Assembly: GCA_001792115.1 (NCBI GenBank)
Contig: MGFX01000001.1
Location: forward strand, 240,606-304,605
Length of the DNA: 64,000 nt
Direction of reading: 5' to 3'
Source of the DNA: Candidatus Woesebacteria bacterium RBG_16_42_24
GTDB taxonomy: Bacteria > Patescibacteriota > Microgenomatia > UBA8517
The notes below the pieces were generated by a model, which ran no database searches, had not been told where the DNA came from, and saw only the letters and a program-made list of their open reading frames with translations. This document shows positions 8,335 through 52,702 of the stretch, piece by piece. The translations under genes and the position numbers were made by a program. Within the stretch, counting starts at the first letter, position 1, and every line of letters begins with the position of its first letter.

Positions 8335-9987
8335 ATGGCTTTTCTTAAATTTATAGCTTTATCTGGTACGACGGGTGTAACTCAAAACCATTACGTTTAC
8401 GAATACGGCAATGACATGATTGTTGTTGATGCGGGAGTCGGTTTTCCTGAAGCCGAGATGTATGGGGTCGATTTGGTGATTCCGGATTTTAGTTATGTAA
8501 AGGAAAACAAACACAAGCTTCGAGGTATTCTAATTTCGCATGGACACGAAGACCATCTTGGGGCCCTACCCTTTCTTCTTCCCCAGGTTAACACGCAGGT
8601 TTATGCTACCCGCCTCGTTGCGGGTTTTATAGAAGACAAACTCAGAGACTACCGTCTAAAGGGTTATAAATTGAATGTTTTTGACCCTGAACGAGATACT
8701 CTAACTTTGGGCAGCTTCAAAGTTACTCCCTTTAGAGTTTCACATTCGGTTCCGGATGGGGTTGGTTTTGCAATAGATACTCCCGAAGGCAGGGTATTCC
8801 ATGTTGCCGACTACAAATTTGACTGGACGCCGGTTGACGGACGGCCTTTTGATATAGCCAAGTGTGCAAACCTTGCCACCGAGGGTACGCTAGCCGTTGT
8901 TTCTGATTGTCTGGGGGCCAATTCTCCTGGCTACACCGAGTCCGAAGCCCAAATTGAAGAGAAGATAGAAAATCTGGTTTTGAACTTTGGCAAGCAAGTC
9001 TTTTTCAGTACGATTTCTTCTAATATCTCAAGGATGCAACAAGCCTTAAACGTTGCTCAAAAGGCAGGAAGGAAGGCGGTTTTTATTGGAAGGTCTATCG
9101 AAAAAAAAGCAGAGATAGCCAGATCCCTTGGATACCTGCATTATGATGGGAGCTTGGTAATTTCGATAAAAGAAGCAAGGAAATTACCTAGCGATAAAGT
9201 TTTTTACATCATTTCCGGAAGCTATGGACAACCCGGGAGCGCTCTTTATCGACTTGCAATAGGCGAACACGACTTTCTAAAGCTTTCCCCCGACGACCTC
9301 GTGATTTTCTCATCAGACCCTGCCCCGCCCGGTTCAAAGGCAAACGTCGATTTTTTGGTGGATAAGCTGATCGAGGCAAATGCGGAAGTTCACTACTACG
9401 ATATGCAGGAGGACTTGCACGTTTCGGGACACGGGAGCCAGAATGATATTGAAATGCTTTTCGCGCTTCTTAAGCCTAAATTTTATATCCCGATTGGCGG
9501 CACAATGAGACACATGAGGGCCTATTCCCAGATGGCCCAAAAGATGGGGGCGAAGAAAGAAGACGTATTCGAACTTCTTCCTGGAGAGACAGTTGAGTTT
9601 AGCGGCAAAAGCGCAAAGAAGGGGGGACGGGTGCCAGTAAAAGACGTCTTGGTGGACGGACTCGGCATTGGAGATGTAGGGAATGTGGTTTTGAGGGATA
9701 GACAAGTTCTTGCCAAAGATGGGGTAGCGATTGCAATGCTTCAGGTTGATAGGAATGCAAGAAAGCTCGTCGGTGCTCCGGAAATAATAAGTAGAGGGTT
9801 TGTTTACGAGGCAAAGCATAAAGATATTCTTATTGAGGCAGGCAAAGAGCTCGCTAGTGAGCTCGAAAAAAAACCAAGTGTGGACACCCACATTACGAGA
9901 AACATAACCATTGAGTATCTCGAACGCTATTTCTTCAAAAGGACCGGACGACGCCCCATGGTCATCCCCGTAGTGGTTGAGCTCTAA
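8335..9987 (+). CDS. rnj: Ribonuclease J (metallo-beta-lactamase / beta-CASP)
   Basis: HGHEDHLGALP (the HxHxDH motif), the beta-CASP region and the RNase J C-terminal domain are present. 550 aa. Confidence 0.9.
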   Translation: MAFLKFIALSGTTGVTQNHYVYEYGNDMIVVDAGVGFPEAEMYGVDLVIPDFSYVKENKHKLRGILISHGHEDHLGALPFLLPQVNTQVYATRLVAGFIEDKLRDYRLKGYKLNVFDPERDTLTLGSFKVTPFRVSHSVPDGVGFAIDTPEGRVFHVADYKFDWTPVDGRPFDIAKCANLATEGTLAVVSDCLGANSPGYTESEAQIEEKIENLVLNFGKQVFFSTISSNISRMQQALNVAQKAGRKAVFIGRSIEKKAEIARSLGYLHYDGSLVISIKEARKLPSDKVFYIISGSYGQPGSALYRLAIGEHDFLKLSPDDLVIFSSDPAPPGSKANVDFLVDKLIEANAEVHYYDMQEDLHVSGHGSQNDIEMLFALLKPKFYIPIGGTMRHMRAYSQMAQKMGAKKEDVFELLPGETVEFSGKSAKKGGRVPVKDVLVDGLGIGDVGNVVLRDRQVLAKDGVAIAMLQVDRNARKLVGAPEIISRGFVYEAKHKDILIEAGKELASELEKKPSVDTHITRNITIEYLERYFFKRTGRRPMVIPVVVEL

Positions 9988-32358: not shown

Positions 32359-32724
32359 GTGATTGAGAAGTTAAAGACTTATACTTCAAAACTTAGTTTC
32401 TGGTGGCCAATTGTGCTTGTTCCAATCTGGCAAGAATTAGTCTTTAGATATCTTCCGTATCGATTTATTTATCTTCCCATTGGTAAATTTTGGGAAGTAG
32501 GACTTCTGTCAAACATTGTTTTTGCTACTCTCCACTGGTACATAGGAAAGTGGTTTACCATCTGGGCATTTTTGTGGGGAATAATATTGTGGTGGGTAAT
32601 GGGTAGGTACGGTTTGATTCCAGCAATTTTGCTCCACTCTCTTGTAAATGTAGTTGATCTTAGGTTTGGAATTAGAAAGCTTTTCAGAAATAAACATGGA
32701 GCTGAAATTAATGGGGGTCTATAA
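32359..32724 (+). CDS. CPBP-family intramembrane metalloprotease (CAAX protease / Abi domain)
   Basis: EELVFRY (the EExxxR motif), FATLHW and HSLVN are present within a polytopic membrane protein. Confidence 0.7.
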   Translation: MIEKLKTYTSKLSFWWPIVLVPIWQELVFRYLPYRFIYLPIGKFWEVGLLSNIVFATLHWYIGKWFTIWAFLWGIILWWVMGRYGLIPAILLHSLVNVVDLRFGIRKLFRNKHGAEINGGL

Positions 32725-32737
32725 GTAACTTTTTAAC

Positions 32738-33310
32738 ATGAAACAAGTTTTTATTATCCACGGCTGGGGAGGGAGTTCCGAGAAGGACTGGATTCCTTGG
32801 GCAAAAAGAGTTTTGGTGCAGAAAGGCTTTGAAGTACATATACCGACCATGCCCGATACCGACAATCCCGTAATTGATAAGTGGGTTGGACACTTAGCCA
32901 AAGAGATTGGAGAAATTGACAAAGACACCGTTCTTATCGGGCATTCAATCGGTTGCCAGACTATCTTGAGGTATTTGGAAGGCTTTTCTACCGGAAGTAG
33001 GATTGGTAAAGTAATATTGATTGCCCCCTGGGTAAGTTTAAAGAATTTAACGAGTGAGGAAGAACCGATTGCGAGGCCCTGGGAAGAAACCCAGATAAAT
33101 TTCGATTCACTCAAGAGCAAGGCGGGTTCATATGTAGCTGTTTTTTCAGATGACGATCCCGTGGTTCCTTATGAAGAAAATATAAAAGTCTTTAAAGAAA
33201 AATTAGGAGCACAAATAATCTCTAAGCACAAAATGGGGCATTTCAGCCAAGACGAAGGAATAACAGAAATTCCTTTTCTTCTTGACCTTATTGGAACGAG
33301 TTACCAATGA
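32738..33310 (+). CDS. Alpha/beta hydrolase, YdeN/RBBP9-like serine hydrolase
   Basis: The nucleophile elbow is GHSIGC. Downstream Asp/His residues (DDDPVVPY...GHF) complete the triad. 190 aa. Confidence 0.7.
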   Translation: MKQVFIIHGWGGSSEKDWIPWAKRVLVQKGFEVHIPTMPDTDNPVIDKWVGHLAKEIGEIDKDTVLIGHSIGCQTILRYLEGFSTGSRIGKVILIAPWVSLKNLTSEEEPIARPWEETQINFDSLKSKAGSYVAVFSDDDPVVPYEENIKVFKEKLGAQIISKHKMGHFSQDEGITEIPFLLDLIGTSYQ

Positions 33311-33447: not shown

Positions 33448-34647
33448 ATGGCAGCTGAAGCAAGACAAAAGTTTGATAGAACCAAGCCGCACGTAAATGT
33501 CGGAACTATTGGTCATGTGGACCATGGAAAAACGACCCTAACCGCGGCAATTACCACGGTTCTATCTAAGCAAGCAGGAAATAAAACAAAACCCCTAAAG
33601 TTCGACGAGATAGATAACGCCCCAGAAGAGAAGGAAAGGGGAGTTACTATTAACATTTCCCACGTCGAGTACGAGACAGAAAAGCGCCACTACGCCCACA
33701 TCGACGCCCCGGGACACGCCGACTACATCAAAAACATGATTACAGGAGCGGCCCAGATGGACGGGGCAATTTTAGTCATTTCCGCGGCAGATGGTCCCAT
33801 GCCCCAAACCCGAGAGCACGTAATTTTGGCCCGCCAGGTCAATGTCCCCGCAATTGTAGTTTTCCTCAATAAAGTCGACACGGTCGATGATCCTGAAATT
33901 CTTGATTTAGTCGAGGCAGATGTGCGTGACCTTCTTAAGAAATACGAATACCCCGGGGATAAAGTACCCATAATCAGGGGGAGCGCACTCAAGGCACTCG
34001 AGGGAGACAAAGAGCAGGAGGCCAAAATTCTGGAGCTTATGAAGGCGGTTGACGAATCTATCCCCGAGCCGGTCCGCGACACCGAAAAACCCTTTATTAT
34101 GCCTGTCGAGGACGTATTTGCTATCAAGGGTCGAGGGACGGTTGTTACGGGCAGGGTTGAGCGAGGAAAACTTAAAATTAACGAAGAGGTCGAGATAGTC
34201 GGGCTTAGGGAAACCAAAAAGGTTGTGGTAACTGGACTTGAGATGTTCAGAAAAACCCTCGATGAAACAGTTGCCGGGGATAATGTCGGGGCACTACTTC
34301 GCGGAATCGAAAAGGACGACGTCGAGCGAGGACAGGTTCTCGCCAAGCCGGGCTCAATTACTCCTCATACTGAATTTGACGCGGAAGTCTATATTCTTTC
34401 AAAAGAAGAGGGAGGCCGCCACACGCCGTTTTTTACCGGTTATAAGCCCCAGTTCTACGTCAGAACCGCGGATGTTACAGGGGACGTTGCACTCCCTACA
34501 GGAATCGAAATGGTCATGCCCGGAGACAATGCCAAAATGAAGGTTAAACTCATCCAACCCGTTGCCATGGAAGAGGGACTTAGATTTGCTATTCGAGAAG
34601 GTGGTAGCACGGTTGGTGCCGGAGTTATCACCAAAATTATAGCTTAA
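33448..34647 (+). CDS. tuf: Elongation factor Tu
   Basis: [18 protein letters not shown] and NKVD are present. 399 aa. Confidence 0.95.
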
Positions 34648-34695
34648 GAAACGCTACACGCTAAAAATAGCTATTAGCACTTTAAAGGGCCATAT

Positions 34696-35004
34696 ATGCC
34701 GGTAGGAAGATTACGAGTCAAGCTAAAATCCTACGACCACCGTGTCATCGACGAGGCGGCAGGAAAGATATTGGATACGGCCCTGGCGACCGGAGCTAAA
34801 ATAGTTGGCCCCATTCCCCTCCCCACAACACGCACCATAATGAGCGTTAAAGAATCCCCTTTTACCGATAAAGATGCGCAAGAGCATTACGAGATGCTGG
34901 TCCATAAAAGGCTAATCGATATCATCGACCCCAGTGAGCGCACAATTGATTCCCTCTCCAATCTCGACCTCCCCGCAGGTGTCAGTATAGAAATCAAAAT
35001 GTAG
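34696..35004 (+). CDS. rpsJ: 30S ribosomal protein S10
   Basis: 102 aa, S10 family (RLRVKLKSYDHRVIDEA...). Confidence 0.95.
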   Translation: MPVGRLRVKLKSYDHRVIDEAAGKILDTALATGAKIVGPIPLPTTRTIMSVKESPFTDKDAQEHYEMLVHKRLIDIIDPSERTIDSLSNLDLPAGVSIEIKM

Positions 35005-35172
35005 TTTTACTACATTTTCTGACACCGATTGCCCCTCCGAATCGCCCTTCGAGCCGTGTATGAATAATACGGGAAAGGCGAGAAGTAAGATTGTGTGGGG
35101 CAGGAGTTGCGATCGAAATCAAGATGTAGGGCGAAACTCCGTTTGCCCCTCCGAATCGCTCTTCGAGCCGTG
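34973..35172. repeat. Tandem imperfect direct repeat of the rpsJ 3' end plus 30-nt downstream box
   Basis: Copy A is 34973-35058 (gcaggtgtcagtatagaaatcaaaatgtag ... ttgcccctccgaatcgcccttcgagccgtg). Copy B is 35100-35172 (gcaggagttgcgatcgaaatcaagatgtag ... ttgcccctccgaatcgctcttcgagccgtg). A third degenerate copy of the 'atcgaRatYaagatgtag' segment lies at 35809-35826. Confidence 0.7.
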
Positions 35173-35214
35173 GCAGCTTGAATCTTTTCCGCATTTTCTT
35201 CATAGTGAAGAAGT

Positions 35215-35784
35215 ATGAAAAAGAATTCTTCCGATGAACGGGGTAGCGTTCCTGTAATAATCGGAGTAATTATTCTCGCGATAGTCGTATTTGGAATATC
35301 TTATTGGACCTACTTCAAATACTACAGACTCGCCTATACTGACAAAACCTATAATTTTTCACTAATGAATCGCAGAGGGTGGCACGAACTTCCAAAAGAA
35401 GAAGGCGTGTATTATTCATTGGGCACATCCGATGTTCCAGGCGGAAAGGTGGTATCGACCTTCAGGATATCGCCGATTACCCGGAAGGATGATACTAGCA
35501 TTACAGACTCTTCTTCATTCCAAAAAATATGCAGCGACCTAATTAAAGAAATAAACTACACAATCCTGGGCTGGTTTGATGTAAGGTATAGCGGTTTAGA
35601 GGGACATGTTTGTAAAAGTGAGGGAAAGGCTGCCGATATAGATAGAATAAACATTTTCAGTATCTATTTACTTATGAATCCGGGCGGGACATACGATTAT
35701 ATGATCTTCACGACTTATCCAAAAGGAAACCTAGTTGAGGAAGCGAAAGTGAATGAGATGTTGCGTTACTTCCACGCAGATTAA
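35215..35784 (+). CDS. Hypothetical membrane-anchored protein
   Basis: An N-terminal TM helix (VPVIIGVIILAIVVFGISYW) is present. No recognisable motifs. Confidence 0.4.
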   Translation: MKKNSSDERGSVPVIIGVIILAIVVFGISYWTYFKYYRLAYTDKTYNFSLMNRRGWHELPKEEGVYYSLGTSDVPGGKVVSTFRISPITRKDDTSITDSSSFQKICSDLIKEINYTILGWFDVRYSGLEGHVCKSEGKAADIDRINIFSIYLLMNPGGTYDYMIFTTYPKGNLVEEAKVNEMLRYFHAD

Positions 35785-35870
35785 AAGTAGAGTTAATATT
35801 AATTTCCCATCGAGATTAAGATGTAGTTTCTCGCGCCAGCCTCGGAAAAGTTGTATAATCCGTCCCTGTT

Positions 35871-36386
35871 GTGACTAAAGAAGTCGCCATAACCCCTGAG
35901 AGCCAGCGTGAGCTGGTTAGGGCGTTTTTGGCAAAACTTGGAGGGGTTGCCATCGCGACGCCAGATATGAGTAGGGACTACAAATTTGTAGCCGTACTGC
36001 CTGAATTAGACGAATGGACTCGGCTTTTTTCGTATGACGGCGCTTCAGTAAAACCCGACTCTATATGGGAAAAATTACACATTCAGAATGTAAATATTAC
36101 TGACTCGACAATGATTTTTTTACGAATAGATGGCAATGTTGCAAAGACAAAAATTGTCGAGGTAGATACTGCCGGATGGGATGAGACTGATTTACAAAGA
36201 GGACACGTTTTGGGATTTAGAGAAAAACCGTTAGTTTTTGATAGGGCACAAAGGATTCTTAGTCATTTGAAAAAAACGGCCTCAAGATTCTTTGTGGTGG
36301 GGTTTCCCATAGACAATCCCAACGACCATAAGCTTATGGTTCCTATCAGAATGGGTGGGGACGATATAGGCGAAGACGATTTTTAA
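35871..36386 (+). CDS. Hypothetical protein (GTG start, 12 nt after a TATAAT box)
   Basis: ORF with coding-like composition. A TATAAT box lies upstream at 35853-35858. Confidence 0.4.
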   Translation: MTKEVAITPESQRELVRAFLAKLGGVAIATPDMSRDYKFVAVLPELDEWTRLFSYDGASVKPDSIWEKLHIQNVNITDSTMIFLRIDGNVAKTKIVEVDTAGWDETDLQRGHVLGFREKPLVFDRAQRILSHLKKTASRFFVVGFPIDNPNDHKLMVPIRMGGDDIGEDDF

Positions 36387-36654
36387 AAAAGCAAAAACTA
36401 TTTTCCGCCTTCACCTACATTTTGGCGGATGAAATAGAAAGAAGGTCGAAAAAATCGTAATATAATCAAAATGGAGAGAGAACAGCAGATTGTTGAAGCA
36501 AAACGAGTTTTGCGCCGACAACTTAGCCTTCGGGGTAAACCACATACGCGGCATATAAGGATGCACCGTCAGGCCGCCGAAGATAATCATAACAGACTCC
36601 CCGCCCCACGAATTTAAGTGGCAACTTTAGCTTCAAAGGGGTAGAATCTAGAAA

Positions 36655-37095
36655 GTGTTAAAGGTGAATGACAAAGCTCCCGAGTTTAAACTACCCGATC
36701 AAAAGGGCAATTTACACAGCCTTAGCGATTATAAAGGGGGTTGGCTTTTGATTTATTTTTATCCGAAGGATTTTACTCCGGGTTGTACCAAAGAAGCCTG
36801 CTCATTCAGGGATAATTTTTCGCGCCTTAAAGACAAGCTGCAACTAGTTGGCATAAGCGGGGACAGCGTAGAAAGCCACAAAAATTTCAGCGAAAAGTAT
36901 AATTTACCTTTTACAATACTTTCCGATCCGGAAAGAAAAGCGATAAAAAATTACGGCACAAATGGACTGATTTTTGCCAAAAGAACTTCTTTTTTAATAA
37001 ACCCTCAAGGAACAATTGAGAAAATTTACGAAAAAGTCGATCCCACCACCCACGCCGAAGAAATCCTTAAAGACATTTCTTCCCTGACAGCTTAA
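36655..37095 (+). CDS. bcp: Peroxiredoxin, Bcp-type thiol peroxidase
   Basis: The FTPGCTKEAC peroxidatic-cysteine motif is present. 146 aa. Confidence 0.8.
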   Translation: MLKVNDKAPEFKLPDQKGNLHSLSDYKGGWLLIYFYPKDFTPGCTKEACSFRDNFSRLKDKLQLVGISGDSVESHKNFSEKYNLPFTILSDPERKAIKNYGTNGLIFAKRTSFLINPQGTIEKIYEKVDPTTHAEEILKDISSLTA

Positions 37096-37190
37096 ATCAT
37101 CCTTTGAAAATCTGGCAAATTTAACCCCTAGAGAGCCTGCAACGTTAAAATTTTGGTTAATAATTATTTACGTTGTAAAATACGGGCAGA

Positions 37191-37664
37191 GTGACTGATA
37201 TAGACGCTTTAACCAATAAATCAAAAAAGGTAATCGACACAATTGAATATATCGATCTTGCAACCATAACCGAAGATGGAAAGCCCTGGAACTCACCTTT
37301 ATGGTTTGTAAGAGACGATAAGTACAACCTTTATTTTTACTCACCCAAATACACCCAACATTCAGAGAATATAAGAAACAACGGCAATGGATTTGTTGTT
37401 ATTTACGACTCGAGAGCTCCGGAAGGCACAGGATTCGGAGTCTATATGACGGTTGAAGTGAAAGAGCTAAATACGGTTTCCGAGGTCGACGAAGCCCTCA
37501 AATGGGTTTATAAGAAAAAGAAAAAGAAAAGGACACCGCAGGAGTTTTTGGGCAATTCCCCTAGAAGGATTTACAAGGTTACTCCCAAGGAGGCCTGGGT
37601 AAATGACGCTGAATTGAAAAATGGTTTTTACCTAGACTATCGAATTCCAATAAAACTTACATAA
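37191..37664 (+). CDS. Pyridoxamine 5'-phosphate oxidase-like FMN-binding split-barrel protein
   Basis: LATITEDGKPWNSPLWFVRDDKYNLYFYS is typical of the PNPOx-like / general stress protein 26 family. Confidence 0.55.
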   Translation: MTDIDALTNKSKKVIDTIEYIDLATITEDGKPWNSPLWFVRDDKYNLYFYSPKYTQHSENIRNNGNGFVVIYDSRAPEGTGFGVYMTVEVKELNTVSEVDEALKWVYKKKKKKRTPQEFLGNSPRRIYKVTPKEAWVNDAELKNGFYLDYRIPIKLT

Positions 37665-37670
37665 ATAAAT

Positions 37671-38138
37671 ATGGGCAGTGTGAATAAGAAAAAACTAGTA
37701 ACTTTTTTAACCGGGGCTCGTGCAAACACCTATGCGGCTGGTAAGGGAAAGGTAAAACCAGTTTTTCCGGGCTCGACCCAGCTTGAATATAAGGAGGGAG
37801 ACTGGCTATATCGCGACATTTACAATTTGGGAAATAAAATCTTCGTGGGTCTTGAGACAGTCTATTTCAAGGGGAAACCCGTCTGGTCGATGTGCTATTA
37901 CGGAGATTTTAAAAAAATGACGGAAAAAGAAATTGATGAGATTCTGCGGGAAGCCTTAATTAAATACAAAGATAAAGTAAGACTTTGGTACCAGGTGGAG
38001 TGGAAAAACAAAAACTTCAAGTATATTTGCACACCCGACTCCCGAGAAGGCATAGAAGAAGTGTCCGGACTCGAGGAAATTTATAAAGACCGAGAGAAAG
38101 TTTATTATCTTTATTACGCCGGCGGCCTCATAGGCTAA
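37671..38138 (+). CDS. Hypothetical protein, DUF5680-like
   Basis: YAAGKGKVKPVFPGSTQLEYKEGDWLYRD...GKPVWSMCYYG resembles a family that I know only as a domain of unknown function. Confidence 0.35.
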   Translation: MGSVNKKKLVTFLTGARANTYAAGKGKVKPVFPGSTQLEYKEGDWLYRDIYNLGNKIFVGLETVYFKGKPVWSMCYYGDFKKMTEKEIDEILREALIKYKDKVRLWYQVEWKNKNFKYICTPDSREGIEEVSGLEEIYKDREKVYYLYYAGGLIG

Positions 38139-38205
38139 CGGCACATTCCTCGCCCCAGCCTCGGTCATATTTTTATTTGAACACTGGGAAATTCGAAGGC
38201 GGGAA

Positions 38206-38904
38206 GTGTTAAAATCAATTGTGAAATTTGACCCGGTTAAGCACTGGAACGATCGCCATTTCGAACTTCCAAAAAATAGAGATACTTCTTCTTACGCGAA
38301 AGACAAAGAAAAATTTTTTCCTCGAAATTCCCTAGTCTGTGATTTGGGTGGCGGTGTTGGAATAGACTCAAATTACTTTTTAGATAAAGGACATGAAGTC
38401 TACCTTCTGGACATTTCTGACTATGCGCTCAAGGCTGCCCGCAACACTGCGGTTTCAAAAGGCCTTGGCTCCCACCTCATTACCAAAGAGGTAGATTTTT
38501 CGGTAGGTATGTTTCCTCTGGAAGACGGTTTGGTCGATATTGTCTATTCAAGGCTTGCCCTTCATTACTTTCCCCTCGATCGTATGAAAGAAATATTTTC
38601 CGAAATTTATAGAATTTTAAAAAATGGAGGGAAGGCGTTCATAGCCGTAAAGTCGCCCGACGACAAAAGGGAAATGGGAGCCCTCAGAAAAATTGCAAAG
38701 GAAACAAGTCCTGGAATTTTTGACGAAAACGGCCTGATTAAAACTAGATTTACAAAAGTGCAGTACAAAACAGTTCTTAAAAAAGCCGGAGTGTTAAGTT
38801 TTGAAGTGCGAGATTGTGTTGAACATTTTGGTAAAGGTAAAGTTTATGTTAAATCCAAAGCAGAAAAACTTCTATATATAGAAATCATAATAAATAAAGT
38901 TTGA
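38206..38904 (+). CDS. Class I SAM-dependent methyltransferase (small-molecule type)
   Basis: The glycine-rich motif I is VCDLGGGVGID. LDISDYAL follows, with post-I motifs (VDIVYSRLALHY ... LKNGGKAFI). Confidence 0.7.
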   Translation: MLKSIVKFDPVKHWNDRHFELPKNRDTSSYAKDKEKFFPRNSLVCDLGGGVGIDSNYFLDKGHEVYLLDISDYALKAARNTAVSKGLGSHLITKEVDFSVGMFPLEDGLVDIVYSRLALHYFPLDRMKEIFSEIYRILKNGGKAFIAVKSPDDKREMGALRKIAKETSPGIFDENGLIKTRFTKVQYKTVLKKAGVLSFEVRDCVEHFGKGKVYVKSKAEKLLYIEIIINKV

Positions 38905-39125
38905 CTTTCGGGATTTTTAAATTAAGGGGTCCGGCCCATTCATAAATCTCAATTTTAATCCTGAGTGAAATCGAAGGATTATAATCCCGAGCGAACTTGT
39001 TCTGAGTAACCTCGAAGGAGTCGAGGGACTTCTGGCAACTTTAGCCTCGAGAGAGTAGAGTACCTCAAAGTTATTTCATGGACAGGTTGGGCCATTGACA
39101 ATATGACAAATTTATCATAATATAA

Positions 39126-39422
39126 ATGAAGTTAATTTTTGATCCTAGGGCTGAAAAGTTCCTGGATAAAATTAGGGACAAAGAAAGAACAAAGGTATTT
39201 GAATATATTCTTTTATTCGAGGAATACGGATTTGAACTTGATAACAGATACCTTAAGAAGGTAACGAAAAATATTTGGGAGTTAAGGCCTAAAAATATAA
39301 GACTATTTTTTATCAAGAGAGCCACAAATTATTTAATCGTTCACGCAATGTATAAAAAATCCCAGAAAATAACCAAGAAAACGCTAAAATTGTTAGAAAA
39401 AAGAATTAAAAGTTACCTATGA
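39126..39422 (+). CDS. Type II toxin, HigB/RelE superfamily (phage Gp49-like)
   Basis: WELRPKNIRLFF... is characteristic of Gp49/HigB-like toxins. Its 3' end overlaps the downstream HTH gene by 4 nt. Confidence 0.6.
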   Translation: MKLIFDPRAEKFLDKIRDKERTKVFEYILLFEEYGFELDNRYLKKVTKNIWELRPKNIRLFFIKRATNYLIVHAMYKKSQKITKKTLKLLEKRIKSYL

Positions 39423-39730
39423 AAGCAAAAAAAATAGACACATCGAAATTCATTACTTTCCACGAGCTTAGAAGAAAGTGGATGAAAGATCCGGAGTTTG
39501 TAAGGGAGTGGGAAAAGTTAGAGCCCCACTATCAAATAGCAAGACAAATGGTTGGGGCCAGAATCAAAAAGAAAATGTCCCAGGAGGAACTTGCCAAAAA
39601 AATTGGAACCGGGCAGGCGGTAATTTCAAGACTCGAAGGAATGAATGCCAAGCCATCAATTTCACTTTTGAAAAGAGTTGCCGACGCATTGGACACACCA
39701 ATAAAAATAACAATTAACCCCGATCGGTAG
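39419..39730 (+). CDS. XRE-family HTH antitoxin (HigA-like)
   Basis: HTH: MSQEELAKKIGTGQAVISRLE. The C-terminal region is DUF-like (KPSISLLKRVADAL). Confidence 0.65.
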   Translation: MKAKKIDTSKFITFHELRRKWMKDPEFVREWEKLEPHYQIARQMVGARIKKKMSQEELAKKIGTGQAVISRLEGMNAKPSISLLKRVADALDTPIKITINPDR

Positions 39731-39788
39731 GCCATTCTAGATTCTGGCAACTTTAGCTTCAACCTCGGGAAAGTAGTAGAATATCCAA

Positions 39789-47591: not shown

Positions 47592-47805
47592 ATTTGCTAA
47601 TATCTCCGGAAGAAAAGCTGTCAAAGCATTTCTGAAATTTGGCTACGTCCACAGTCACTCCTCCGGCGATCATGCAATTCTTCAAAAGAAAGGCGCACCT
47701 ACCTTATCGATCCCATTACACAAGGAGATAGCTCCGTTTTTATTAAAGTCTCAAATTAAAAGAGCGAATATTAGGCCCGATGATTTCCTGAAAGCTTTAA
47801 AATGA
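47584..47805 (+). CDS. hicA: HicA-family mRNA interferase toxin
   Basis: GRKAVKAFLKFGYVHSHSSGDHAILQKKGAPTLSIPLHKEI is YcfA/HicA-like. It overlaps hicB by 8 nt. Confidence 0.7.
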   Translation: MPRFANISGRKAVKAFLKFGYVHSHSSGDHAILQKKGAPTLSIPLHKEIAPFLLKSQIKRANIRPDDFLKALK

Positions 47806-48114
47806 TCAGTCCGGTAGGTAACCTTTCCCCAATAAATTTGACCCCCTCCGTCGCTAAAGCTTTGAAGAGCTAGGCCATAATCCCAGGTTTAGTTTCAACA
47901 CCATTGTCATTACCCTATAGTCAATTTGCTTTCCTGTGTGAGTCGTGCTATACTTCTTTTCTAGTTGGCAGATTGAAGAAATAGATCTGCTTAATTTTTG
48001 AATTTATTTTGAAGTCGGTAAGATAAAGATACCCCAAATCTTTCGTATTTATTCGTATCTTGTCCCCCACATCACGATTTTCTCATTTAAGCAGTTTTAT
48101 TTCTTTAATACTTT

Positions 48115-49317
48115 ATGTATAACAGGCATAACCATCGCTCAAACGGACACGGAGGGGGAAGAAGGTTCCAAAACAGATTTCCCTCCAGAAGCCAAAAAAC
48201 TGACGCCGAAATCGTGAGAGCGATTCAAGCTATCCAAATTACAGAAGCCCAAGAAGGCGATAGCCCCCAGAGCGCCTATATCCCCAAAAACAGATTTGAA
48301 GATTTTGCAATATCCGGGCAGCTTAAGAAAAACATTTCAGATAAAAGGTATGTAACCCCTACTCCCATTCAGGATCAGGTAATACCGGCAATACTTCAAG
48401 GCTCGGACGTTATAGGAATTGCCAATACAGGAACGGGCAAAACCGCCGCATTCTTAATTCCTTTAATCGAAAAAGTCTGCAATGACAGAAGCCAGAAGGT
48501 ACTTATAATTACTCCCACCCGTGAGCTTGCCTTGCAAATTAACGAAGAACTTTATGGCTTCTCCTATGGTTTGGGAATTAAGAAGGCACTTTGTGTTGGG
48601 GGAATGAATGAAAGAAAGCAAAGATATGAATTGTCATGCATTCCCAATTTTGTAATAGGCACACCCGGGCGCTTAAGGGAATTTATTGAAAGTCGGGCAC
48701 TTCCTATTTCGGAGTTTAACAATATCGTAATTGATGAGGCAGACAGGATGGTAGACATAGGGTTTATCGCCGATATTAAGTATTTTATTTCGTGCCTTCC
48801 CCAAACTCGCCAGTCGCTTTTTTTCTCTGCAACAATTCCCCCTAAGGTAAAGCTGATTCTCGGATCTTTTGTTCGAAACCCGATAACGATTTCGGTAAAG
48901 CTAAAAGAAAGCATAGATAATATTAAGCAGGATATTATTAAGGTTACCGATAGCCAGGGGAAGGTGGACCAGCTAGAGAACATCCTTTCTCAGGAAGGCT
49001 TTAATAAGGTTCTTATTTTTGGACGTACAAAATGGGGAGTTCAGAGACTTTCGAATGAGCTTGTAAGGCGCGGCTTTAAGGCCGGGGCTATTCACGGAAA
49101 CAAAAACCAAAGTCAAAGGCAAAGGGTTTTGGATGACTTTAAAAATAGCAGAATCTCTATTCTTTTGGCTACGGACGTAGCTTCCCGGGGACTCGATATT
49201 GAGGATGTAAGTCACGTAATAAACTACGATTTACCGAATACCTTCGAAGATTATATTCATAGGATTGGAAGAACGGGCAGGGCAAACAAAAAAGGCGTTG
49301 CCTTAACCTTCGTTTAA
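48115..49317 (+). CDS. DEAD-box ATP-dependent RNA helicase
   Basis: The Q-motif region is present. Motif I is ANTGTGKTAAF, motif Ia is PTRELALQ and motif II is DEAD (VIDEADRM). SAT, HRIGRTGRA and an N-terminal Arg/Gly-rich tail are also present. Confidence 0.85.
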   Translation: MYNRHNHRSNGHGGGRRFQNRFPSRSQKTDAEIVRAIQAIQITEAQEGDSPQSAYIPKNRFEDFAISGQLKKNISDKRYVTPTPIQDQVIPAILQGSDVIGIANTGTGKTAAFLIPLIEKVCNDRSQKVLIITPTRELALQINEELYGFSYGLGIKKALCVGGMNERKQRYELSCIPNFVIGTPGRLREFIESRALPISEFNNIVIDEADRMVDIGFIADIKYFISCLPQTRQSLFFSATIPPKVKLILGSFVRNPITISVKLKESIDNIKQDIIKVTDSQGKVDQLENILSQEGFNKVLIFGRTKWGVQRLSNELVRRGFKAGAIHGNKNQSQRQRVLDDFKNSRISILLATDVASRGLDIEDVSHVINYDLPNTFEDYIHRIGRTGRANKKGVALTFV

Positions 49318-49358
49318 AAACCAAAAAATTCGCCCCCGTTCTGGTATATGATACTTAT

Positions 49359-49697
49359 ATGGATGATTCGCTAGTTTGCCCCTCTTGTCATATTGAAGTA
49401 CGTTCAACCGATTATTTTTGCTACAACTGCGGCAAAAATCTTAAGCCCAAGCCTCTTTCTACTTCTTTAACCCAACAAATACTAATTTATTTGGGAAGCG
49501 TATTCCTGCCGCCCTTGGGGCTCGTCTGGGGAGTCCGTTACCTGCGCCAGGAAGATAACACTTCAAAAATTGTGGGGGTAATCTCTATTGTTTTAACCGC
49601 TATTACTTCGGTTTTATTAATAAAATTCACAAATGACCTGATAAAAACAGTAAACGAGCAGGTAAATAGCCAACTTCAAGAGATGCAAGGTTTTTAG
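49359..49697 (+). CDS. Zinc-ribbon plus two-TM protein, hypothetical
   Basis: CPSCH...CYNCG is followed by hydrophobic helices. Confidence 0.35.
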   Translation: MDDSLVCPSCHIEVRSTDYFCYNCGKNLKPKPLSTSLTQQILIYLGSVFLPPLGLVWGVRYLRQEDNTSKIVGVISIVLTAITSVLLIKFTNDLIKTVNEQVNSQLQEMQGF

Positions 49698-49772
49698 GAT
49701 AATCTTAGGACTATAGAAATATGTTCCCACATTGTAATTGTCACCTAATCCTCAGTATAATTTCATTACATT

Positions 49773-50015
49773 ATGAGTGAGCGCGAAGCAGACTTACGTT
49801 GCCCATTTGATGAAGAACGTCCGTGTCTCGATGGGTGCGAACTTCGGCCTTTCGTTTTGAGGATGTTGGCTATATATCATCATCTAGCCCCCCCGGATGA
49901 AGTAAGAAAATCAATTGTAACTTGTCCCTCAAGACGAGGGGACGGCGAGAGAGCAATAACTGGAGGGGTAAACAACCACATCAAAGAAAAATTTTGCCTG
50001 CATTCTAGGCATTAA
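49773..50015 (+). CDS. Hypothetical Cys-rich small protein
   Basis: ORF only; no recognisable motifs. Confidence 0.25.
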   Translation: MSEREADLRCPFDEERPCLDGCELRPFVLRMLAIYHHLAPPDEVRKSIVTCPSRRGDGERAITGGVNNHIKEKFCLHSRH

Positions 50016-50272
50016 AAGAACTTCCTTCTTTGAAGCAAATTTGTGCTATACTTAGATATTGAACTCAGATTCTCCAGTTGCTAAATTGATCGATACTTTC
50101 TTGCAAAGAGGAGGAAGGATAGATAAATATTATCTTCGAGGTACAAACCAATCAAAACGCTCCCTGGTTTATCTACACGGATGGTTTTCGGGGCAGAATA
50201 TCAAATCCGCAATCCTCAAAGCCTTCGGAAAGGTTTAGAATAGCTAGAAGCAACTTAATCTTCTTAACTTGC

Positions 50273-50527
50273 TTATGCAGCTTTTTGGGAGATGTTATGG
50301 GTTCTTCTTTCTTTGGCTTCCGTTTGCCTTCTTACATTGGCCAGTTCTCTCTCGTCTCTTAATTTTTGATCTTTGACAAGCTGTCTATCCACAATTGTCT
50401 GACAATCGGGATCGGGACAGGCAGTAAGCTTGGTAACAATAAGCGAACTACCTATGTATTCTTTATAAGTTTTTACAACAACTCTTACTTTTCCGCACCT
50501 CATACAGACATTTAATCCCGTATTCAT
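50273..50527 (-). CDS. Hypothetical zinc-ribbon protein
   Basis: CMRCG ... CPDPDC. It is on the minus strand, convergent with the flanking genes. Confidence 0.3.
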   Translation of the reverse strand: MNTGLNVCMRCGKVRVVVKTYKEYIGSSLIVTKLTACPDPDCQTIVDRQLVKDQKLRDERELANVRRQTEAKERRTHNISQKAA

Positions 50528-50548
50528 ATAATCTTTTAGAGTGAATTT

Positions 50549-50860
50549 TTACCAGCGCCTAGATTGCCTTTGCCCTCCGCCTCCTCTGTCATATCCCGCG
50601 GAACTTCTTTCCTCTCGCGGCCTTGCTTCATTGACTATGATTTTTCTTCCACCAAAATCCTTACCGGAAAGCTCTTTTATAGCTTTATCGGCGTCTGCGT
50701 CATTTTTATATTCTACAAAACCGAATCCTTTTCCTTGACCGGAATATCTGTCGGTAATGACTGTTGCGCTTGCAACCTCACCAATTTCTGCGAAAAATTG
50801 ACTGAGTTCTGCGTCAGTAGCGGTGTAGGGAAGACCTCCTACGAATAATCTTTTTGCCAT
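50549..50860 (-). CDS. RRM-type glycine-rich RNA-binding protein
   Basis: RNP-2 is LFVGGL and RNP-1 is KGFGFVEY. The C-terminus is RGG-rich. Confidence 0.75.
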   Translation of the reverse strand: MAKRLFVGGLPYTATDAELSQFFAEIGEVASATVITDRYSGQGKGFGFVEYKNDADADKAIKELSGKDFGGRKIIVNEARPREERSSAGYDRGGGGQRQSRRW

Positions 50861-50992
50861 TTATTATCTCACCACCTTTGTGTACTTACGTGAGGATTAT
50901 TCCATCTAAGAAGCTTTAAACCGCTTGGTAGAAGTAATCGTAACCTAAGTAACTAATGATACTTTATCATAAAAAATGTAAAATAGCAAAGT

Positions 50993-51664
50993 ATGTATAA
51001 ACTTTCTCCTTCCGATTTCAAATACCTTTACCAGGACTGCAAGCACTGCTACTACCAAAAGGTGAAAAAGGGAATTACCCTGCCCTCAATCGGAATGCCC
51101 GGAGTTTTTTCCAAAATGAATTCACTTCTACAATCGGCGATTATGGGAATGAATCTAAAGGATGTAAATTCCGAACTCCCATCAGGAATAATCGAAGTTA
51201 AGGAAGGATTTCTGCGATCCGCCCCAATTCCGCCCTCCAAAAAGTCCTTTATAAGTGGGCGATTCGACATTACTTCGAAACTTGAGGGCGGCTCAATTGC
51301 CGTAATTGACTTTAAAATTACCGACCCGACAGAGGAAAAAATCCAAAAATACTCAAGTCAGCTCCATGCCTATAAATTCTCCCTCGAAAACCCGTCTTAT
51401 GGTGAGGCCAAAAAGGTGGCCAAGATGGGAATTATAGCCATAAACCCGGAAGACATTTCTTTTCCGGGGGATAAAGTAATTTTTAAGGCAACCCCGACCT
51501 GGTTTGAAATAAAGGAAGATATGGATAGTTTTTATAATTTCATATCCGAAGTAACAGAGCTTTTGGAAGGACCCACCCCTAAAGAAAATCCTGATTGTGC
51601 GTGGTGCAAATACCGCCTCTGTTTCGCCCACCCCGAAGCCACACAGGATGAGATTCCTTTTTGA
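50993..51664 (+). CDS. Cas4/RecB-family PD-(D/E)xK nuclease with Fe-S cysteines (stand-alone)
   Basis: A GRxD-like motif (SGRFDIT), a D/ExK motif (AVIDFKIT) and QxxxY (QLHAYKF) are present. Cys motifs are CKHC at the N-terminus and CAWCKYRLC at the C-terminus. Confidence 0.55.
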   Translation: MYKLSPSDFKYLYQDCKHCYYQKVKKGITLPSIGMPGVFSKMNSLLQSAIMGMNLKDVNSELPSGIIEVKEGFLRSAPIPPSKKSFISGRFDITSKLEGGSIAVIDFKITDPTEEKIQKYSSQLHAYKFSLENPSYGEAKKVAKMGIIAINPEDISFPGDKVIFKATPTWFEIKEDMDSFYNFISEVTELLEGPTPKENPDCAWCKYRLCFAHPEATQDEIPF

Positions 51665-51679
51665 GTTCTCCGAACCCAA

Positions 51680-51708
51680 TTGACGTCTGAAGCTAAATGA
51701 TTTATAAT
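51680..51708 (+). promoter_or_regulatory. Sigma70-type promoter (TTGACG-N17-TATAAT) restoring transcription into rplC and the S10/spc genes downstream of the island
   Basis: -35 at 51680-51685 and -10 at 51703-51708. Confidence 0.6.
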
Positions 51709-51808
51709 CTTGGCATCAATGGAGGTGACTAGCCAGAAATAACCTCTACATAAGAAGTAGGATGTGCCAGTTGAGGGCGCCTCCGGCGCCTTTTTTTGTG
51801 AGAAAAAG

Positions 51809-52702
51809 ATGATCAATGCTATTTTAGCCTCAAAAGGGAAAATGGGAGCGGCCTTCGTCAAAGGCCGAAGGTTTGCTGTGACAAAAGTTCTGGCCGGCCC
51901 GTGCGTGGTCATCCAGGTTAAAAAAATGGAAAAAGACGGATATTGGGCGGTCCAGCTTGGCTTCGGAGAAAGAAGAATTAAGAATATTAGTAAGGCCATG
52001 CAAGGACACCTCAAGTTAAGTCAAAACTCAAAAGTCAAAACTCAAAGCTCTAATCTCAAATCTCAAAACACCCTCCCCAGATTTATAAGAGAGGTAAGGC
52101 TAGAAGAAGAACCAAAAATGAATGTTGGAGATGAAGTTAAAGCCTCCGACGTTTTTAATGTCGGAGATATTGTTAGTGTTTACGGCATTTCCAAGGGTAA
52201 GGGTTTTCAGGGAGTGGTAAAGCGCTGGGGATTTGCGGGGGGTCCCAGAACCCACGGACAATCTGACCGTGAGCGAGCACCGGGCTCAATCGGCCAAGGA
52301 ACAACTCCGGGCAGGGTTTATAAAGGTAAACATATGGCAGGAAGAATGGGAGGGGATAGTGTTACTGTTAAAAATTTGCAAGTGGTTTCTATTGAGCCTG
52401 AAACAGGACTGATTGAGATTTCGGGTCCTGTACCGGGGGATACGGGAGGCCTTCTTAAGATAACGAGAACAGCTAAGGGCGAGCTTGAAGGAATTCAGGA
52501 AGTAGCGGCCCAGGTTGTAGAAGGAGAGCCCTCCTCCGCCGAGGCTACGGAGGACAAGGTCCCCGCCGACGCTGGCCTGCCTGCCGGCAAGGCAGGAGCT
52601 GTGGCGGGCAAGCCCGCCGACGAGGCTCCAACCGAAAGCGGCGCACCCGCCGCAACTAAAGAGGTCCCAGCTGCTAAAGGAGGTCAAAGTGACAAAAGCT
52701 AA
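51809..52702 (+). CDS. rplC: 50S ribosomal protein L3 with an internal low-complexity insertion and a long Ala/Pro/Glu-rich C-terminal extension (ORF track starts at 51764)
   Basis: MINAILASKGKMGAAFVKG... is L3-like. GKGFQGVVKRWGF and HGQSDRERAPGSIGQ are L3 motifs. Confidence 0.9.
   Translation: MINAILASKGKMGAAFVKGRRFAVTKVLAGPCVVIQVKKMEKDGYWAVQLGFGERRIKNISKAMQGHLKLSQNSKVKTQSSNLKSQNTLPRFIREVRLEEEPKMNVGDEVKASDVFNVGDIVSVYGISKGKGFQGVVKRWGFAGGPRTHGQSDRERAPGSIGQGTTPGRVYKGKHMAGRMGGDSVTVKNLQVVSIEPETGLIEISGPVPGDTGGLLKITRTAKGELEGIQEVAAQVVEGEPSSAEATEDKVPADAGLPAGKAGAVAGKPADEAPTESGAPAATKEVPAAKGGQSDKS

Follow-up and report, generated by a model that had tools for sequence, protein, structure and literature searches.

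Defence islands at hotspots between core genes have been described for the pan-genomes of Escherichia coli and Pseudomonas; such islands and hotspots have been mapped mostly in cultivated Proteobacteria and Firmicutes, with little for the tiny genomes of the Candidate Phyla Radiation (CPR). ICEs (integrative and conjugative elements) and IMEs (integrative and mobilizable elements) also occur as integrase-less, tandemly accreted derivatives, referred to as cis-mobilizable elements (CIMEs). In streptococci, ICEs and IMEs target the 3′ ends of the operon-final ribosomal-protein genes rplL, rpsI, and rpmG (Ambroset et al., 2016, PMC4701971). Type VI retrons comprise a reverse transcriptase (RT), an adjacent Cro/C1 helix-turn-helix (HTH) protein, a small auxiliary protein of 75–79 aa, and a non-coding RNA (ncRNA) (Mestre et al., 2020, PMC7736814), and the leader of the E. 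coli S10 operon is subject to L4-mediated attenuation (Fu et al., 2013, PMC3616713). Here, we describe an island between rpsJ (S10) and rplC (L3) in a 64 kb stretch of DNA (the window, to which coordinates refer) from Candidatus Woesebacteria (Microgenomates, CPR). It is likely a composite accessory and defence island that has accreted at the rpsJ|rplC operon boundary by integration at the rpsJ tail and by cassette exchange.

A sequence-only reading of the window had placed about 30 non-ribosomal genes between rpsJ and rplC. The island is indeed present and occupies 35005–51679 (16.7 kb), where ~27 non-ribosomal open reading frames (ORFs; listed at a cut-off of >=59 aa), nearly all on the plus strand, separate the two genes. 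It had been regarded as a single island; the analysis resolves it into two rpsJ-tail units, a promoter-repeat array, a portable retron, and a right segment (49704–51664) common to the conspecific contig L035 (L-numbers denote contigs or loci of relatives or conspecifics). The features at its two ends are as follows.

34696–35004, plus strand: rpsJ (S10; Pfam Ribosomal_S10, 5e-30); its last 30 nt (34975–35004) are tail copy c1, AGVSIEIKM-stop, the left attachment repeat.
35005–35129, plus strand: unit 1, with a spacer, an ~85-nt nested hairpin (35020–35106), and a second rpsJ tail, c2 (35100–35129).
35130–35826, plus strand: unit 2, with the 5′ half of the hairpin (35136–35172), orf189 (35215–35784), and a third rpsJ tail, c3.
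35827–36386, plus strand: promoter-like module and orf171; the −10 element TATAAT is at 35854–35859, and the module directly follows rpsJ in L244.
51680–51808, plus strand: rplC promoter (51680–51708) and leader, with a hairpin at 51720–51748 and a terminator-like hairpin at 51773–51793, then a T-run.
51809–52702, plus strand: rplC (L3) from its probable true start, ATG 51809; the annotated ORF, 51764–52702, begins at GTG 51764.

Evidence for integration comes from the end of rpsJ. The tail ATHGARATHAARATGTAR occurs three times against 0.03 expected occurrences, and copies encoding IEIKM and a stop are located at 34987–35004 (c1), 35112–35129 (c2), and 35809–35826 (c3). The c2 copy comprises nine codons and the stop (AGVAIEIKM-stop, 35100–35129) and differs from c1 by one replacement (Ser to Ala), all other differences being synonymous; in c3 (~35806–35826), the last five codons (IEIKM) alone are unchanged. 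In L177, L198, and L199, a second AGVSIE(I/V)KM-stop copy is located 110–130 nt past the real stop, together with the hairpin, and its approximately seven differences are all synonymous, including a TCG↔AGT serine switch. Since unconstrained drift would not remain synonymous, the tail copies must, judging from their codons, have evolved as working rpsJ ends, most simply either in other genomes or in elements whose copy becomes the working end after integration.

An empty site, which provides the decisive comparison, is available in a sister lineage, L244, which was located via the sole homologue of orf171; there, the orf171 homologue begins 47 nt after rpsJ. Blastn alignments between L244 and the window cover 33613–35011 and 35809–36407, the 25-nt tail being common to both. 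Compared with this empty site, the window has gained 822 nt, the sum of unit 1 (125 nt) and unit 2 (697 nt), with a direct repeat of the rpsJ tail on either side, a hallmark of additive, Campbell-type integration. Furthermore, identity at third codon positions, measured between L244 and the window, rises from 0.51 (rpsJ) and 0.57 (tuf) to 0.84 in orf171. This step at the rpsJ stop indicates that the DNA to its right was shared between the two lineages far more recently than the core genes. The c1 copy differs from the tails of the nearest relatives at 9–10 of 30 positions and c3 from the same tails at 2–4 of 21, which fits, over few sites, an imported c1 and a c3 that represents the displaced original. 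The rpsJ stop region (34993–35023) also forms a near-perfect palindrome, AAAATGTAG-TTTTA-CTACATTTT, of which L198 and L199 have shorter versions; the palindrome may serve as the core site of a recombinase or form a 3′ hairpin in the mRNA. A dif/Xer-like site at the rpsJ tail was considered and rejected owing to a misfit in arm spacing, as judged by eye.

The junctions are well supported by independent assemblies. The sequence-only reading had raised the possibility of a chimeric assembly, to be judged by support across both junctions. The passage from rpsJ into the island is covered by at least 22 contigs from several studies, with an identical S10 protein and 98–100% nucleotide identity, and the passage from the island into rplC is covered by L033, L034, and L037; contigs including those of the NCBI metagenome-assembled genomes MGFZ01000006 (L033) and MGHK01000023 reach secY, and the left and right contig sets share an overlap of 2.6–4 kb. 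Mis-assembly is thus excluded by many independent assemblies spanning both junctions and the middle.

Relatives were collected by scanning genomes with L3 and metagenomes with S10, which yielded ~100 Woesebacteria/Microgenomates loci. An uninterrupted rpsJ–rplC junction, which the sequence-only reading had suggested looking for in relatives, is found in the nearest of them (L161 and L164–L170; S10 92–96% identical), where the spacer measures 120–147 nt and island genes are lacking. No homologue of the island proteins was found within ±10 kb of rpsJ in the ~100 loci, and the block is therefore lineage-specific; its gene content further marks it as accessory and rich in defence and toxin–antitoxin (TA) genes.

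The spacers of ~120–150 nt in uninterrupted relatives all hold a −35/−10 promoter and a hairpin/terminator leader. From 5′ to 3′, the order is promoter, hairpin (GTGGAGGTG...CCAC or GGAGGT...ACCTC), GGATGTGCC box, GC-rich hairpin with a T-run, and rplC ATG, the T-run directly preceding the ATG. The segment 51680–51808 of the window is homologous to these spacers and nearly identical to those of L011 and L169. The promoter TTGACG-N17-TATAAT, reported earlier at 51680–51708, is present with 11/12 matches. It had been thought to resume transcription into rplC after the insertion; as promoter and leader are present in all uninterrupted spacers, it is ancestral and predates the island. For the same reason, the rpsJ–rplC junction is to be regarded as an operon boundary, and the cargo does not lie inside a conserved operon as had been proposed: in this clade, rpsJ evidently closes the str/tuf unit and rplC heads a unit of its own. 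With its own promoter and an attenuator-type leader for rplC, cargo placed before the promoter would leave ribosomal-protein expression undisturbed, which would make the site tolerant of cargo.

The rplC leader is also found upstream of rplC in L011–L031 and L161–L227, and its terminator stem covaries (CG↔UA). It has no Rfam match and may be an undescribed ribosomal-protein attenuator. The annotated GTG start at 51764 is probably wrong because the terminator hairpin (51773–51793) falls within the ORF, and ATG 51809, in agreement with the starts of the relatives, is probably the true start of rplC. L3 is unusually long (~297 aa from ATG 51809), and Pfam Ribosomal_L3 covers residues 122–212 of the annotated ORF only.

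Between orf171 and the rplC promoter, the island carries the following features.

36617–36636, 39031–39050, 39743–39762, 41532–41551, 42362–42381, and 42816–42835, plus strand: junction repeats (repeat search).
36655–37095, plus strand: AhpC/TSA peroxiredoxin (Pfam).
37191–37664, plus strand: PNPOx-like protein (Pfam).
37671–38138, plus strand: DUF5680 protein (Pfam).
38206–38904, plus strand: S-adenosylmethionine (SAM) methyltransferase (Pfam).
39126–39422, plus strand: HigB/Gp49 toxin (Pfam), paired with the HTH antitoxin.
39419–39730, plus strand: HTH antitoxin (Pfam), partner of HigB/Gp49.
39789–40415, plus strand: DUF3800 gene a (Pfam; PADLOC PDC-M04A, 5e-14).
40515–40447, minus strand: DUF3800-IX small RNA (Rfam RF02968; 50.3 bits against a gathering score of 36.8).
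40659–41474, plus strand: orf271, an uncharacterised family with a ParB/Srx-like core and a DGxHR motif, between the two DUF3800 genes.
41581–42216, plus strand: DUF3800 gene b (Pfam).
42411–42779, plus strand: MazG-like pyrophosphohydrolase (Pfam).
42929–44125, plus strand: N6/N4 DNA methyltransferase of a type II restriction-modification (RM) pair (Pfam N6_N4 MTase).
44122–44958, plus strand: TdeIII-family endonuclease of the type II RM pair (RE_TdeIII, 6e-72).
45076–47004, plus strand: type VI retron, with promoter, ncRNA region, auxiliary ORF, HTH_VI, and RT_VI.
45076–45104, plus strand: retron promoter.
~45105–45430, plus strand: structured ncRNA region of the retron.
45435–45638, plus strand: retron auxiliary ORF, 67 aa (56% identity and the same position in L241 and L243).
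45687–45992, plus strand: HTH_VI gene, encoding a 101-aa Cro/C1 HTH protein (PADLOC HTH_VI, 7.4e-24).
45979–47004, plus strand: RT_VI gene (PADLOC RT_VI, 1.4e-77).
47280–47591, plus strand: HicB antitoxin (Pfam).
47584–47805, plus strand: HicA toxin (Pfam).
48115–49317, plus strand: DEAD-box helicase (Pfam).
49359–49697, plus strand: Zn-ribbon membrane protein, which ends the strain-variable cargo.
49704–51664, mixed strands: right-hand segment, with orf80, orf59, orf84 (minus), an RRM protein (minus, 50549–50860), and a PD-(D/E)XK nuclease (50993–51664).

The left half of this cargo is arranged as an array. The 20-nt junction repeat TCTGGCAACTTTAGCCTYAA has six copies, all in the island and none elsewhere in the 64 kb, against 0.02 expected, and a weaker copy is located at 37111–37130. 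The six copies precede six units between 36.6 and 42.9 kb and are usually followed by GGAAAAGT..TAAAAT..ACGGGCAG and then by a start codon; the repeat looks like a shared promoter that would yield nearly leaderless mRNAs. The second half of the promoter-like module of orf171 is the same as that of the junction-repeat module. The idea that the junction repeat is a copy of the clade's rplC promoter was rejected: relatives share TTTAGCCTCA/TAGCTTCA by eye, and a profile hidden Markov model of the promoter gives no support, the model (20 relatives) having recovered neither the junctions nor the window's own rplC promoter above noise. A scan of viral contigs for the junction motif returned single chance matches to a 14-nt pattern only. 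An integron-like array was likewise rejected: IntI is missing, and the junction repeat, which sits in promoter position, is neither an inverted repeat nor a hairpin.

Regarding gene content, Pfam and PADLOC back most of what the sequence-only reading had named, i.e., the RM pair, the HigBA-like and HicBA pairs, the MazG-like gene, the two DUF3800 genes, the retron RT, and the DEAD-box helicase. Its "Cas4-like" nuclease does not stand: the product of 50993–51664 scores 18.7 bits with TIGR00372 against a cut-off of 65 and reaches 4e-6 only with PADLOC Cas4, and it is a generic PD-(D/E)XK nuclease. The defence-type systems clustered in the island comprise the type II RM, the type VI retron, HigBA-like and HicBA pairs, and DUF3800 (a PADLOC candidate), whereas the AhpC, PNPOx, DUF5680, SAM methyltransferase, DEAD-box, and RRM genes resemble ordinary metabolic or RNA-related genes rather than defence genes. 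The comparison of GC content between island and flanks, proposed by the same reading, separates a core from its edges: genes at 38.2–47.8 kb have a GC content of 0.29–0.38 against 0.457 ± 0.020 in flanking genes, with exceptions at the HTH gene at 39419 (0.41), orf271 (0.43), and HicA (0.40), and the island edges are nearer to the background.

The orf189 product is an ORFan with homologues only within the host species, and that of orf171 is an ORFan with a single homologue (L244). The orf271 family comprises ~118 clusters at 50% identity, and its AlphaFold model (pLDDT 96) has weak matches to ParB-N/sulfiredoxin/SbnI folds; as no recombinase fold was matched, orf271 was rejected as a hidden recombinase. 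The DUF3800-IX RNA is preceded on the minus strand by a near-consensus promoter, TTGACA-16-TATATT (40555–40528), and a terminator-like hairpin and T-run are read from the sequence at ~40448–40416. The RNA is convergent with DUF3800 gene a and located 32 nt past the gene end, and no second DUF3800 RNA is detectable downstream of DUF3800 gene b (41581–42216). The function of DUF3800 RNAs was given as unknown by Weinberg et al. (PMC5737381).

Elsewhere in the window, the upstream part encodes NusA, IF-2, PNPase, RNase J, and FtsK, then rpoB, rpoC, rpsL, rpsG, and fusA, followed by an Rce1-like gene, a serine hydrolase gene, tuf, and rpsJ. Downstream, the L3 ORF is followed by L4, L23, L2, and onward to SecY.

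The retron reads as a complete type VI module. Its upstream region folds stably (z = −5.7) and holds an 11-nt inverted repeat (45139–45149 / 45425–45435); across three loci compared by eye, the hairpin stems differ on both strands yet remain complementary. Against Rfam, the ncRNA gave a sub-threshold match to an msr model only. The auxiliary–HTH–RT trio, with its conserved structured upstream region, recurs elsewhere: two other CPR contigs have it by recA, adjoining a putative tRNA gene, a third has it next to lon, and in a fourth it lies close to a gene for a large serine recombinase and to other element-type genes (primase, packaging protein); these unrelated contexts show the retron to be portable. 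In L241 (~8950–9030) and L243 (~8905–8985), the retron is directly 3′ of a tRNA-like sequence (by eye), between recA and the TauE/uppS-rpsI region, which suggests a tRNA-associated insertion there. In L033 (MGFZ01000006), the alignment breaks inside the RT gene (5614–5629 against window 46565–46621) and a 107-aa fragment is called, so that annotation of this record would miss the retron.

Cargo varies between strains. From 49704 rightwards, the window and the conspecific contig L035 match at 99.7% identity, with the breakpoint in an intergenic spacer; to the left of 49704, the cargo of the window gives way in L035 to a type II RM system of the MvaI/BcnI type, a sugar transferase, and many small ORFs, and the contig ends before the left end of its variant island. 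A repeat of ~140–158 nt upstream of hicB (window 47164–47304) occurs twice in L035 (3168–3325 and 7176–7333; copies 93% identical) and is the only sequence common to the two left of 49704. This repeat may represent a small mobile element or a module with promoter function, and a related short motif, AAATTTGACCCC, recurs in both islands.

The explanation that we consider likely is as follows. The island (35005–51679) would grow between a str-type unit ending in tuf–rpsJ and an rplC-led S10/spc unit. DNA would enter by Campbell-type, probably site-specific, recombination in the last ~20–30 nt of rpsJ; the incoming element would bring a synonymous copy of the rpsJ tail that becomes the new functional 3′ end, and the old tail would be pushed downstream. 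Such tail-displacing entry would have occurred at least twice here (c1, c2, c3). Further inside, small cassettes (AhpC, HigBA, DUF3800 with its RNA, the ParB/Srx-like gene, the second DUF3800, MazG, and RM) would form an array, each headed by the same promoter-like junction repeat of 20–45 nt, and the portable type VI retron, HicBA, and RNA-related genes would follow, with cargo swapped between strains. The cargo would supply restriction, abortive-infection/addiction modules, and the retron, and presumably acts in phage defence. Integration may have been catalysed by a recombinase acting in trans or by an enzyme since lost, and some of the cargo turnover is probably due to homologous recombination in the conserved flanks. 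The recombination hotspot that the sequence-only reading had suggested at the rpsJ 3′ end is supported by the tail repeats, the L244 empty site, the divergence step, the clade-wide length polymorphism of the junction, and the variant-cargo strain.

Several observations weigh against this explanation. Searches of the island with Pfam, NCBIfam, PHROGs, and PADLOC recovered no integrase, transposase, or other recombinase, and neither did a scan of 14 kb of upstream window sequence. The tails were compared over 21–30 nt only, and at the right end of the whole 16.7 kb there is no tail copy or other repeat, the repeats bounding the proximal 822 nt only. The AhpC, PNPOx, DEAD-box, and RRM genes are non-defence genes with GC near background. 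Furthermore, 110 ORFs from the gaps of relatives gave no match to PHROG integrase families and two transposase matches only, and the ordinary genes that fill much of these gaps indicate that repeated integration does not explain the whole hotspot signal, part of which reflects drift in gene order and vertical descent within subclades.

In the best-surviving alternative, resident genes accumulated at or were shuffled into a permissive boundary by ordinary gene-order drift, with no dedicated integration or mobility. The length polymorphism that speaks for a hotspot is as follows: among the relatives, the rpsJ|rplC junction has >300 nt extra in 41/76 loci and >1 kb in 20, and three more loci have no rplC within 10 kb; the corresponding counts are 0/94 and 0 at tuf|rpsJ, 5/67 and 0 at rplC|rplD, and 18/64 and 12 at fusA|tuf. 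The inserts at rpsJ|rplC are mostly ordinary genes, namely, an FtsJ-like methyltransferase (12 loci), phosphatases, FemAB, PmbA/TldD, and transporters, along with one IS630-type transposase. Drift would account for such housekeeping-type genes, for the fixation of the FtsJ-like methyltransferase in one subclade, for the variability of fusA|tuf as well, and for an island with no mobility gene and with several ordinary-looking genes of near-background GC. It does not account for direct repeats of the rpsJ tail with nearly all differences synonymous together with an empty site, nor for the jump in synonymous identity from ~0.5 to 0.84 exactly at the rpsJ stop; nor does it predict another RM system in a conspecific strain, or a low-GC core with RM, TA, retron, and DUF3800 genes whose retron module recurs in unrelated contexts. 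Drift as the whole explanation is therefore unlikely.

In the clade, only rpsJ|rplC is more variable than the fusA|tuf junction, where inserts reach 5.4 kb. In the window, 32359–33310 between fusA and tuf holds the two non-ribosomal genes for an Rce1-like CAAX protease and a serine hydrolase, neither of which has a homologue within ±10 kb of rpsJ in the ~100 loci.

A second alternative is that cargo is swapped by homologous recombination in the rpsJ/tuf and rplC flanks (or in the 49.7–51.7 kb segment), the tails being by-products. It is favoured by the 99.7% identity of L035 right of 49704 with a switch in an intergenic spacer, by a divergence of the window from L244 that is mosaic across the end of rpsJ, and by the lack of an encoded recombinase. 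Double crossovers replace DNA, however, and do not generate direct repeats of 20–30 nt of a gene end; three tandem tails here and the duplicates in L177, L198, and L199 require an additive event. By itself, this mechanism is hence still less probable than drift, and it probably acts alongside tail integration and cassette exchange rather than replacing them.

The hairpin of the small units bears on a further alternative. The start of unit 2 is 92% identical to the 5′ half of the unit 1 hairpin over 37 nt. Compensatory changes occur in 11/24 pairs among five sequences, and a larger, model-fitted set gave stronger covariation, inflated by one reverse-strand self-hit. A covariance model found seven matches in 1.15 Mb of relatives' loci, all of them within str/S10-region spacers: four lineages have the hairpin after rpsJ, L014 and L171 have it just before the rplC ATG, and one fusA–tuf spacer holds it in inverted orientation. 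The copies are located at 35020–35106 in the window, 776–862 in L177, 1297–1384 in L198, 1963–2041 in L199, 9909–9991 in L014, 1757–1840 in L171, and 8580–8661 (minus) in L180. The apical sequence is GAGCCGTGTAYGAATARTAC.GRAAAGG, and in L014 and L171, the 3′ strand (GGAGGG) is located 10–15 nt ahead of the rplC ATG. There is no Rfam match beyond noise, and the ~85-nt hairpin may serve as a recombination site or as a regulatory RNA, or may itself be a miniature mobile element. That the duplicated tail and hairpin are a functional RNA element of ribosomal-protein operons spreading by local duplication, unrelated to the island, is very improbable: its confinement to these spacers, its strong covariation, and a GGAGGG strand that could hide the Shine-Dalgarno sequence before rplC speak for it, but the L180 copy is on the strand opposite to the flanking genes, and the nine-codon rpsJ copy and stop kept with only synonymous changes, the ORFan between the hairpin 5′ half and the tail in unit 2, and the L244 empty site are left unexplained.

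Within the preferred explanation of tail integration and cassette exchange, a bolder proposal can be put forward only tentatively, with more doubt than assurance. The hairpin and the synonymously recoded rpsJ tail (9 codons) might together constitute undescribed miniature integrative units that home to the rpsJ stop region in Woesebacteria and are mobilised by a recombinase encoded elsewhere. The hairpin would possibly be a folded single-strand recombination site, and the units would carry cargo (orf189) and act as a landing pad for the self-promoted cassette array and defence island.

These findings imply that a CPR lineage maintains, at a fixed site beside its ribosomal-protein genes, a sizeable arsenal that differs between strains (RM, type VI retron, TA, and DUF3800 with its RNA). 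Ribosomal-protein marker concatenations and synteny-based binning make use of the rpsJ|rplC junction, which is commonly assumed not to vary; in this clade, it varies more than any other junction of the region. Furthermore, the locus supplies testable objects: an rpsJ-tail attachment site with an empty site, a new conserved hairpin, and an undescribed rplC leader. A literature search on rpsJ/rplC islands found nothing relevant.

In comparison with known systems, the locus resembles ICEs, IMEs, and CIMEs in its insertion at the 3′ end of an essential ribosomal-protein gene that is last in its unit and whose product is unchanged, in direct repeats of the gene end that flank the insert, and in the tandem accretion of units. 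Unlike ICEs and IMEs, the island lacks genes for conjugation or mobilisation as well as any tyrosine or serine integrase; its units measure a mere 125 and 697 nt, its host belongs to the CPR, and the repeats bound the proximal 822 nt alone. As in defence hotspots flanked by core genes, cargo differs by strain (TdeIII-type RM, retron, and TA against MvaI/BcnI-type RM in L035), and a low GC content goes together with a clustering of RM, TA, retron, and candidate systems. Unlike the hotspots of E. coli and Pseudomonas, the flanks are rpsJ and rplC, which are contiguous in most bacteria, non-defence genes are included, and the left-half cassettes carry the same junction repeat. The retron matches type VI retrons in its RT_VI, 101-aa HTH_VI, small upstream ORF, and candidate ncRNA region, structured and with inverted repeats, whereas its auxiliary ORF encodes 67 aa rather than 75–79 aa, and its host is a CPR bacterium. 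As in the E. coli S10 leader, a hairpin followed by a terminator hairpin and U-run is located 5′ of an operon encoding L3 and L4; by contrast, the leader precedes rplC and not rpsJ, and there is no sequence or Rfam similarity. The one-directional array of small, mostly single-gene units with a recurring short sequence between them recalls integron arrays, but IntI is absent, the repeat is upstream of genes and promoter-like rather than an attC hairpin, and there is no GTTRRRY core. Integration at the 3′ ends of operon-final ribosomal-protein genes and defence hotspots between core genes are thus known already; the novelty lies in the rpsJ|rplC site, the CPR host, miniature units that lack an integrase and carry a conserved hairpin, and the cassette array with its promoter repeats.

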